Shown: positions 14,527 through 15,884 of the stretch, in pieces | Layout of the letters: each line of letters starts with the position of its first letter | Position numbering within the stretch: position 1 is the stretch's first letter | DNA from: Nitrospirota bacterium | GTDB lineage: Bacteria > Nitrospirota > Thermodesulfovibrionia > Thermodesulfovibrionales > Dissulfurispiraceae | NCBI GenBank assembly: GCA_037441185.1 | Contig: JBBISP010000005.1 | Location: forward strand, 5,889 to 69,888 | DNA: 64,000 nucleotides | Direction: 5' to 3' | Program-made: the position numbers and the translations under genes | The notes under the pieces: generated by a model | Told to the model about the DNA's origin: nothing | Seen by the model: the letters and a program-made list of their open reading frames with translations, nothing else | Database searches by the model: none

Positions 14527-14805
14527 TTAAAATCTATGCATATCTTTATTCAGAGAATATATAAAAACAAGCATCTCTGCTACTGCTTTATAAAGTTCTA
14601 CAGGGATTTCCTGATACATATCAAGGGATGAAAGAACATCTATCAATGCCTTGTCTTCCCTTATATGTATGCCGTGGGCTTTTGCAATCTCGATAATCTT
14701 CTCAGCCGTATTGCCCGATCCTTTTGCCACAAGTCTTGGGGCAGGGTCTTGTCCATGTTTGTATTTTAATGCTGCTGCCTTTTTCTGAGACTCTCTCATT
14801 CTCAA
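14527..14805 (-). CDS. Stand-alone FlhB C-terminal-domain paralog (FlhX/YlqH-like)
   Basis: Aligns by eye with the post-cleavage part of FlhB in this window: AALKYKHGQDPAPRLVAKGSGNTAEKIIEIAKAHGIHIREDKAL...IPVELYKAVAEMLVFIY versus [44 protein letters not shown]...IPEDLYRAVAKILAYVY. Confidence 0.85.
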   Translation of the reverse strand: MRMRESQKKAAALKYKHGQDPAPRLVAKGSGNTAEKIIEIAKAHGIHIREDKALIDVLSSLDMYQEIPVELYKAVAEMLVFIYSLNKDMHRF

Positions 14806-15884
14806 ACCTTAAGATTAATTTCTCCGCTGTCTTTTGCGCTGAAATGAATGCGCTCCTTCTGTCCTATATTAACAGCATTAAGGATAAGCCCTGCGTCAAC
14901 AAACCTTTTCTCAAGAAGTTCTTTTTGCGCAATTATCAGCGATACGGTCTCTATCCTTTCTGCATAGAGGGAAATATAAATTGCCTTGTTAAATAGTGTG
15001 ATTGCTGCGGAGATCTTTCCGATTTTTTCAAGGTCAAGGTTTATCTCACAGACATATGAATCATCTTTATTTTCTTTGCCCTTTCTGAAAATAATCTCCC
15101 CATCCCTTAATCCCTGCCATGAAACAGGCAGGAATGTATAAAGCACATTATTTATGTAAGATGAAAACTGGAAAAATTCTATGGCATTTAAAAGTCTTAC
15201 AACCGCGCCTGTTATTTCTTTATGTTTTAAACCCGACATCTTAATAAACTTCAAAACCTCTGTATCCAGCAATGAATCTTTGACTTTTAGAAGCAGTCCT
15301 TTGAGATCACTCATTATCAGTTTTTTAATATCAGAGTCCTCCATAGCTGCAAGCTTTAACCTTGCCTCAAACATGACTCCAGAGGCATTAATTAAGGTCT
15401 TCAAACTGGTATGGCTCATATGCGCTATTTCAGGCAGGAGATTAGCGATAGCCCTGAATTCAGAAAATAATGTTTTAATGGTTTCAGGCATTGAATTGAA
15501 AAACTCTTTAATAATCTTTACATCATTAATCTTCAGCCCTGAATTTGGCATTTCTGATAAAATGCTGCGAATCTGCCTGATCAACAGATTGTCTTCAGCC
15601 TTGCTGCTTTTATACCCTACAAACTGCAGCTTAATCTCCTGTCCCAGTCCTGCTATCTTAAGGAGTATGGCGTCTCCTTTTGAAAGCGGCATGCCTGATT
15701 TAGCAATAATTATTGCGCTTTCTTTGGCAGTGTCAGATGATTTTATGCGGAGCGATACATTCCCTGAATCTATTACATCGAGGACTTCGGCGCTAACTAT
15801 ATCTCCGATTCTAAGAGGGACAGTCTTTGAAGAAGAAGTAAGGAATGTAAAGGCATCAGATGATTTGGCAGGAGGTATATGCAT
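14802..15884 (-). CDS. Hypothetical protein with a FliK-like (Flg_hook-type) C-terminal domain
   Basis: C-terminal CEINLDLEKIGKISAAITLFNKAIYISLYAERIETVSLIIAQKELLEKRFVDAGLILNAVNI follows the same pattern as the C-terminus of the FliK in this window (VEVSVEPEEIGRLDIKLSLDKDAVKARITAFEHVGKEIIEKNIHNIIDSLIKEGINIGSFSV). 4-nt overlap with the FlhB-C-like gene. Confidence 0.55.
   Translation of the reverse strand: MHIPPAKSSDAFTFLTSSSKTVPLRIGDIVSAEVLDVIDSGNVSLRIKSSDTAKESAIIIAKSGMPLSKGDAILLKIAGLGQEIKLQFVGYKSSKAEDNLLIRQIRSILSEMPNSGLKINDVKIIKEFFNSMPETIKTLFSEFRAIANLLPEIAHMSHTSLKTLINASGVMFEARLKLAAMEDSDIKKLIMSDLKGLLLKVKDSLLDTEVLKFIKMSGLKHKEITGAVVRLLNAIEFFQFSSYINNVLYTFLPVSWQGLRDGEIIFRKGKENKDDSYVCEINLDLEKIGKISAAITLFNKAIYISLYAERIETVSLIIAQKELLEKRFVDAGLILNAVNIGQKERIHFSAKDSGEINLKV

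Follow-up and report, generated by a model that had tools for sequence, protein, structure and literature searches.

A fliK2–flhX Gene Pair in the Late Flagellar Gene Cluster of a Nitrospirota Genome: a FliK-Type Switch Domain beside a Stand-Alone FlhB-CC-Like Protein

We analyzed a 64,000-nucleotide stretch of DNA from a Nitrospirota bacterium (GenBank assembly GCA_037441185.1, contig JBBISP010000005.1, positions 5,889 to 69,888 of the forward strand; hereafter the window), and in particular two adjacent genes on its minus strand, fliK2 (14802..15884) and flhX (14527..14805). Our analyses indicate that these genes are probably this genome's copy of a conserved fliK2–flhX pair that is accessory to flagellar type III export. 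Specifically, FliK2 has the T3S4 switch domain known from FliK, together with a FliK-like hydrophobic C-terminal tail, and FlhX appears, from its sequence, to be a soluble protein colinear with the FlhB-CC fragment that is released by FlhB autocleavage. The pair is already known and named (fliK2–flhX) and is common, and the window adds one Nitrospirota member to it. The source genome is a metagenome-assembled genome (MAG) of 1.82 Mb in 49 contigs, assigned to the Thermodesulfovibrionia (Nitrospirota), and the loci found as its relatives with a FliK2 profile all belong to Nitrospirota/Thermodesulfovibrionia MAGs.

Results

FliK2 Carries a T3S4 Switch Domain and a FliK-Like Tail

An earlier interpretation made from the DNA letters alone (the sequence-only reading) had placed both open reading frames (ORFs) of the pair on the minus strand at the coordinates given above, and the ORF list of the window, in which fliK2 encodes 360 residues, agrees with it. 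It had also held that the C terminus of the 360-residue protein follows the Flg_hook pattern of FliK, and had named a profile search as the check. That search returned Flg_hook (PF02120) at residues 269–344, with 31.9 bits against a Pfam gathering cut-off of 29.8 (E = 1.2e-7); a search of FliK2 against NCBIfam gave no match. An AlphaFold model built from a 23-row alignment, with a mean predicted local distance difference test score (pLDDT) of 69, divides the protein into a disordered start (residues 1–19), a β-rich domain (about 11–91), a helical region (about 100–244), an α/β domain (about 259–342, the T3S4/Flg_hook domain extending to 344), and a short terminal strand (356–359). In a Foldseek comparison the C-terminal domain matched FliK-C (2RRL) and the substrate-switch domain of PscP (5CUK; root mean square deviation [rmsd] 2.8 Å), each with probability 1.0. 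After this domain comes a short tail that is conserved in the family as G-[LIV]-[DNH]-[LIV]-[KR]-[VA]-COOH: the window protein ends ...G-E-I-N-L-K-V, and the tail of the genome's own FliK, which ends ..NISIFV, resembles it. Pfam domain, AlphaFold model, Foldseek matches, family profile, and tail conservation all enter into the identification of fliK2.

Ruler FliK proteins have a long unstructured measuring segment. In FliK2 no such N-terminal ruler is predicted, and with moderate confidence the protein appears to have the folded β domain and helical region of the model in its place; in the model of an orthologue these parts reach pLDDT 80–97. The N terminus of FliK2 itself is Ser/Thr-rich and disordered. 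The homologues range from 333 to about 800 residues, and it is the middle region that varies in length. Longer members (P0009; L011, at 4189..6558; L028; and P0267, of 812 residues) have insertions in the helical middle or a duplication of the N-terminal β domain, which recalls the length variation of ruler proteins. FliK2 is not the sole Flg_hook protein of the flagellar system. The canonical fliK, which the sequence-only reading had located at 51388..53025 (minus strand), encodes a separate FliK of 545 residues with a Flg_hook score of 46.8 bits, and adjoins flgD and flgE.

A profile of 23 FliK2 sequences matched 4584 cluster representatives at E ≤ 1e-3, 1271 at E ≤ 1e-10, and 232 at E ≤ 1e-30, and the best 150 matches mostly cover most of the profile. 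Because the matches are numerous and mostly extend along most of the profile, and because the genome's own FliK is only marginally similar, FliK2 appears to be a family of its own. A profile search of a second protein collection gave 17 matches; the organism names recovered from these and from a sample of ten top-ranking matches point to Arcobacteraceae/Campylobacterales and Nitrospirota, with Nitrospirota the sole named group in the sample of ten. Outside the Nitrospirota, homology to FliK2 is shown for proteins of Arcobacteraceae and Campylobacterales only. In public annotation, the Prokaryotic Genome Annotation Pipeline labels members of the family either “flagellar hook-length control protein FliK” or “hypothetical,” and the name FliK on P0147, P0198, P0282, and P0283 makes genomes that bear the pair seem to have two FliK genes; NCBIfam holds no name or model of its own for the family.

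FlhX Resembles Post-Cleavage FlhB and Has a Surface Patch of Its Own

The flhX ORF encodes 92 residues if read from a TTG at 14805, or 90 residues if read from an ATG at 14799, the latter being the form of the gene call in a public protein collection. The two genes meet in the sequence GTTTGAGAATG, that is, ...AAG GTT TGA GA ATG..., and they overlap by 4 nt with the TTG start or are separated by a 2-nt gap with the ATG start.

FlhX matches the last 74 positions of PF01312 (262–335 of 335; E = 1e-18). Its best-scoring family, far ahead of the full-length FlhB models, is TIGR00789 (flhB_rel, “FlhB-like flagellar biosynthesis protein”), along which it extends from position 2 to position 82 of 84 (E = 1.7e-29, 101.9 bits). 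In the FlhB-C crystals 3B1S and 3B0Z it pairs with chain B, the part after the cleavage site, from residue 5 onward, and its alignment with the genome's own FlhB starts right after T-N-P-V-H (FlhB, ...VVITNPVH/LAVALKY; FlhX, ...QKKAAALKY). The claim that the short ORF aligns residue for residue with the part of FlhB just after the autocleavage site is borne out by these alignments. A transmembrane region, FlhB-CN, and the N-P-x-H site are all missing from FlhX; in sum, it is a stand-alone protein in the range of ~85–100 residues that follows FlhB colinearly from just past the autocleavage site through helix 4. The full-length FlhB of the genome (346 residues; PF01312, 404 bits) is encoded at 44610..45650 on the minus strand, and for it, as for canonical fliK, the domain scores agree with what had been read from the letters. 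Its autocleavage motif is N-P-V-H rather than the usual N-P-T-H, and relatives (L041, L044, L052, and L053) have N-P-V-H, N-P-I-H, or N-P-L-H.

In a comparison of 120 FlhX sequences with 21 Nitrospirota FlhB-CC sequences, the core motifs A-P-x-x-V-A-K-G and I-P-x-x-L-Y-x-A-V-A proved common to both, whereas K-P-L-A-R-x-L-F-K, invariant in FlhB, is replaced in FlhX by x-x-L-V-E-x-L-S-x-L-D-L-Y-x-E. P-L-A-R-x-L is lost in this exchange, and the charge at the position of the Arg is reversed. The resulting FlhX-specific patch (V-E..S-x-L-D-L-Y-x-E) covers helix 3 and the loop that precedes helix 4; D20, K73, and E77 are further residues specific to FlhX.

FlhX is 57–89% identical to the listed FlhX proteins, including 61% to one from Arcobacteraceae, and about 44% identical to the CC region of its own FlhB, while between FliK2 and the FliK of the same genome the identity is 28% over 69 residues (E = 0.034). 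Because FlhX is nearer to distant FlhX proteins than to its own FlhB-CC, and because FliK2 barely matches its own FliK, fliK2 and flhX appear to have arisen as paralogues long ago and not through recent copying of the local fliK and flhB. Between the window and the related locus L001, FlhX is 71% identical and CsrA 69%.

The Two Genes Recur Side by Side

In the window the gene immediately upstream of flhX, in the same orientation, encodes a Flg_hook/T3S4 protein, and the sequence-only reading had proposed the co-occurrence of the pair in related genomes as a second check. A FliK2-like gene stands directly before the FlhX-like gene in all 11 related Nitrospirota loci, where the pair usually follows flgL or fliW and precedes fliC. 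Four FlhX homologues sampled from other contigs (58–65% identity; one from Arcobacteraceae) each have a Flg_hook protein of 333–439 residues directly upstream (4/4), and in three of the four contigs ordinary housekeeping, nonflagellar genes flank the pair on at least one side. A recognizable FliK2 precedes flhX in 16 of 23 further Nitrospirota genomes as well. The junction is an ATGA-type overlap or a gap of ≤12 nt in 12 of 15 loci (13 of 15 if a TTG or GTG start is read). Because the arrangement recurs in related loci, in other contigs, and in further genomes, the pairing is more than chance; fliK2 and flhX appear to be translationally coupled and to stay paired in different phyla, also at a distance from other flagellar genes. 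Of 121 Nitrospirota genomes sampled, FlhB is present in 74; a small FlhX ORF accompanies it in 47 of the 74, and three Nitrospirota families are entirely without FlhX.

All seven exceptions among the 23 further genomes belong to one family, f17. Their FlhX-like proteins do not have the FlhX-specific patch and keep the FlhB-like P-x-L-A form. Because the patch co-occurs with FliK2 and is absent from the lineage without FliK2 upstream, it goes with the presence of FliK2 and is likely to form the surface for this partner. The gene before the flhX-like gene in these loci (L034–L040) encodes a conserved proline-rich protein in a frame of 272–361 codons, with the motifs IRWP, PFRLEV, and GGVYDPS. 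As a divergent FliK2 this protein was rejected, there being no Pfam Flg_hook match and an hhalign probability of 0.1 against the FliK2 profile; it may be a different partner, or a FliK2 that has diverged beyond recognition.

One genome, G005, has two complete fliK2–flhX pairs in tandem (L020, G005:C2:303500-311500, minus strand, 6299..3206), encoding 383 and 87 residues and then 363 and 92 residues; tandem duplication as a unit suggests that the two proteins are cognate partners. In another genome, G016, a 444-residue open frame around FlhX was considered as a FliK2–FlhX fusion and rejected, since it is a long stop-free frame of a high-GC genome in which fliK2 and flhX are distinct genes that do not share a frame.

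The Pair Lies in a Putative Late Flagellar Operon

On the minus strand the gene order is flgM (19802–19515), flgN (19518–19063), flgK (within 15899..19802), flgL (17479–16562), csrA (16544–16278), fliW (16285–15899), fliK2, and flhX, followed by fliC, flaG, fliD, and fliS. The flgM, flgN, csrA, and fliW genes were recognized by their Pfam families; flgK and flgL were recognized by tblastn matches at the syntenic positions in related loci and by the Pfam-annotated genes of L016. Flagellin Pfam domains were found for fliC, and in all the assignments of flgM, flgN, flgK, flgL, csrA, fliW, fliC, and flaG are either confirmed or in keeping with the evidence. Packing is tight between csrA and flhX, where neighboring genes overlap or stand ≤14 nt apart.

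A pattern search found four σ28-like motifs in the window, three of which are on the minus strand, intergenic, and upstream of late genes. The first, TAAAG-N16-TCCGATA at 19832..19857, lies about 30 nt upstream of flgM; the second, at 14350..14375, lies after flhX, as a candidate promoter of the flagellin gene fliC; and the third, TAAAG-N17-TCCGATA at 11125..11151, lies upstream of a 65-codon ORF after fliS. Because a separate σ28-like promoter precedes the flagellin gene that follows, flhX is taken as the last gene of the operon. Most simply, fliK2–flhX would be the tail of a σ28-type flgM operon, and flagellin would have its own promoter. The sequence-only reading had likewise put the pair at the end of a σ28-type late operon with flgM, flgKL, csrA, and fliW, and both the gene string and the promoter-like motif favor that placement. 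The genome encodes one FlhA, two Flg_hook proteins, and two FlhB-type proteins, of which one is a full-length FlhB. A second flagellar system as the home of the pair was rejected because the genome has a single FlhA.

Several other features of the surrounding DNA were observed. Downstream of its σ28-like promoter, the 5′ leader of the flagellin gene (14140..14345, minus strand) contains a hairpin, AAAAGGCA-UGGA-UGCCUUUU, with GGA in the loop, and an AAGGAGG Shine–Dalgarno sequence (fold z-score −2.75). This is the arrangement expected for control of flagellin translation by CsrA, and it would fit the adjacent csrA–fliW. The 65-codon ORF after fliS (10896..11093, minus strand), which has its own σ28-like motif and matches no Pfam family, may encode a small, unannotated late flagellar protein. 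In L016 (4293..5561) an HD-domain gene directly follows flhX, and in the window an HD-GYP-type response regulator and a PilZ protein are encoded at 8839..10323, a few kilobases downstream of the filament genes; such neighbors may hint at a link between cyclic di-GMP signaling and the late flagellar genes.

Discussion

The present study suggests that the Nitrospirota genome analyzed here carries, in addition to its canonical fliK and flhB, a member of the fliK2–flhX pair. FlhX was reportedly named by Pallen and colleagues in 2005. A study of Pseudomonas putida describes PP_4328 (fliK2) and PP_4329 (flhX) as a FliA-dependent two-gene operon and gives it as uncharacterized (bioRxiv 10.1101/2021.08.29.457346), and a study of Campylobacterota mentions an flhX–fliK locus in Nitratiruptor. 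In Helicobacter pylori, FlhX (HP1575) has been reported as a “spare part,” allowing export in the case of an FlhB-CC deletion (Wand 2006). Such a function in trans is known for HP1575 only. Our literature search for a functional study of FliK2 found none. Given these names, the earlier claim of a tightly coupled second pair of FliK type and FlhB-CC type stands, but its treatment of that pair as new does not.

Comparison with these systems brings out both likenesses and differences. In P. putida KT2440, as in the window, a protein in which the C-terminal Flg_hook domain of FliK is the sole recognized domain is encoded immediately upstream of, and in the same orientation as, an FlhB-C-like gene. 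The P. putida operon falls in the late σ28/FliA class, to which a promoter-like motif would assign the window pair as well. However, the window pair is appended to flgM–flgN–flgK–flgL–csrA–fliW, whereas the P. putida pair is a separate two-gene operon; the host of the window pair is a Nitrospirota MAG, and the likeness to PP_4328 is drawn from the description of that protein. Like HP1575 of H. pylori and Cj0848c of Campylobacter jejuni, FlhX of the window is a soluble FlhB-CC homologue of ~90 residues without a cleavage site. It aligns residue for residue with FlhB-CC (3B0Z and 3B1S chain B) from β2 to helix 4, but it is the product of its own gene, never has a covalent or β1-paired CN partner, and has K-P-L-A-R-x-L-F-K replaced. 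FliK2 in turn shares with Salmonella FliK (2RRL) and PscP (5CUK) a C-terminal T3S4 fold followed by a hydrophobic tail. It differs from the FliK ruler in the modeled absence of a long disordered ruler segment, in a gene that is unlinked to flgD/flgE, and in its marginal similarity to the genome's own FliK.

A 2026 study shows FlhB-CC to be a lock that holds the export gate in its early mode and that FliK ejects when the hook is finished, and it reports that the last five residues of Salmonella FliK are required for switching (PMC13344023). Against this background we suggest, tentatively and with the balance of probability against us, that FliK2 and FlhX form a complex with each other and that their action, at the switch or later, is on the site of FlhB-CN vacated by FlhB-CC. 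The two proteins would bind through the same kind of T3S4/FlhB-CC contact as FliK makes with FlhB, with the V-E..S-x-L-D-L-Y-x-E patch of FlhX as the likely partner surface. If the pair is made only once the hook-basal body is complete, its targets would be export gates at or after the specificity switch. FlhX would then occupy, or compete for, the membrane-anchored FlhB-CN site that is held by FlhB-CC until FliK ejects it, and FliK2 would deliver, hold back, or remove FlhX. A more specific form of this proposal, which we regard as improbable as it stands, is that a soluble FliK2–FlhX complex mimics the encounter of FliK-C with FlhB-CC, is held together by the acidic patch and helix 4 of FlhX, is made only after σ28 release, and reloads, caps, or keeps empty the FlhB-CN site. 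If this were true, the “irreversible” specificity switch would be adjustable in the many phyla that have the pair.

Structure prediction was applied to an idea of strand completion through a natural fusion. In L001, fliK2 and flhX are in the same frame, and reading the intervening TAA as Gly yields a single protein (P0133), which was folded as a monomer with checked FliK2 and FlhX alignment rows; the alignment is shallow. Confidence rose in the FliK2 part, where many blocks reached pLDDT 85–98, and the predicted template modeling score was 0.64. Within FlhX only the L-D-L-Y-Q-E-I-P patch and helix 4 are confident (pLDDT 74–98), and this segment offers a lead in that it would be compatible with docking on FliK2. 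The idea of strand completion was as follows: because FlhX is without the β1 strand of FlhB-CN, and because FliK2 ends in a strand-like tail beside the gene boundary, the FliK2 tail could substitute for β1 on FlhX. The fusion model does not support this idea, given low pLDDT and an rmsd of 16 Å, although with a shallow alignment and a monomer model the test is a weak one.

Several observations weigh against the reading of the window genes as a conserved FliK2–FlhX pair that acts on the export gate. In the fusion model, the FliK2 tail, the linker, and FlhX from strand 2 to helix 3 lie at pLDDT 27–54, the FlhX part superposes poorly on FlhB-CC (the rmsd named above), and no confident FliK2/FlhX complex was predicted in this run, with its shallow alignment and monomer model. 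The FlhX score, from an alignment along the full length of TIGR00789, is below the trusted cut-off of that family (117.35 bits), a cut-off that none of the 121 Nitrospirota genomes passes. The σ28 assignment of the operon is a motif match only. FlhX is absent from about a third of flagellated Nitrospirota and is therefore dispensable. Finally, the Ser/Thr-rich, disordered N terminus of FliK2 and the variable length of its middle could mean that FliK2 is an exported, ruler-like protein after all.

In another explanation FlhX is a spare part or alternative gate subunit that replaces FlhB-CC on FlhB-CN, and FliK2 is the dedicated trigger of FlhX-loaded gates; this would amount to the second checkpoint that the sequence-only reading had proposed beside a decoy. 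The ability of HP1575 to permit export in place of FlhB-CC argues for this explanation, as do the T3S4 fold and FliK-like terminal tail kept in FliK2 and the duplication of the pair as a unit in G005, as expected of cognate partners. However, FlhX has lost the FlhB-invariant P-L-A-R-x-L, with the charge reversed at the Arg, and therefore does not replace FlhB-CC on equal terms; FlhB itself is intact in this genome, cleavage motif included; and late, σ28-type expression fits poorly with a role in the hook-to-filament switch, which precedes σ28 activity. On this evidence we consider the spare-part explanation rather unlikely. Somewhat less credit still is due to the proposal that the pair is a decoy or buffer, in which soluble FlhX sequesters the T3S4 domains of FliK and FliK2, or FliK2 does so with FlhB-CC after its ejection, blocking relocking or premature switching at new gates without either protein joining the gate. 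Both proteins are indeed soluble copies of two interaction partners, free FlhB-CC is, in the 2026 model, a species of physiological relevance, and the pair is dispensable in many flagellated relatives. Nevertheless, tight 1:1 translational coupling would be expected of a stoichiometric complex more than of proteins that titrate a third one.

That FliK2 is the secreted ruler of a second structure or flagellar system, with FlhX as the gate component of that system, is very improbable: the composition of the FliK2 N terminus and the wide spread in homologue length would be in keeping with a ruler, but FlhA and full-length FlhB each occur once in the genome, FliK2 is modeled, at moderate confidence, with folded β and helical parts and no long disordered segment, and canonical FliK sits with flgD and flgE. 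Decay of fliK2 and flhX into functionless duplicates, for which only the low Pfam score of the Flg_hook domain speaks, is effectively refuted by conservation, that is, by intact frames, conserved synteny, a junction coupled across phyla, and an FlhX as conserved as CsrA between genomes.

The reading that remains favored is that the window genes are a copy of the conserved fliK2–flhX accessory pair, which is among the most widespread flagellar gene pairs still without an assigned function. For the planning of experiments it is useful that the pair is linked to the late checkpoint of csrA, fliW, and flagellin, that an FlhX-specific surface patch separates FlhX from FlhB-CC, and that in one lineage the FlhX variant is FlhB-like and FliK2 is missing upstream. 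With FlhB-CC recognized as a removable lock of the early export mode, a free-standing FlhB-CC paralogue that, by its promoter motif, would be expressed late, together with a T3S4 partner, has an obvious and testable place in the mechanism.

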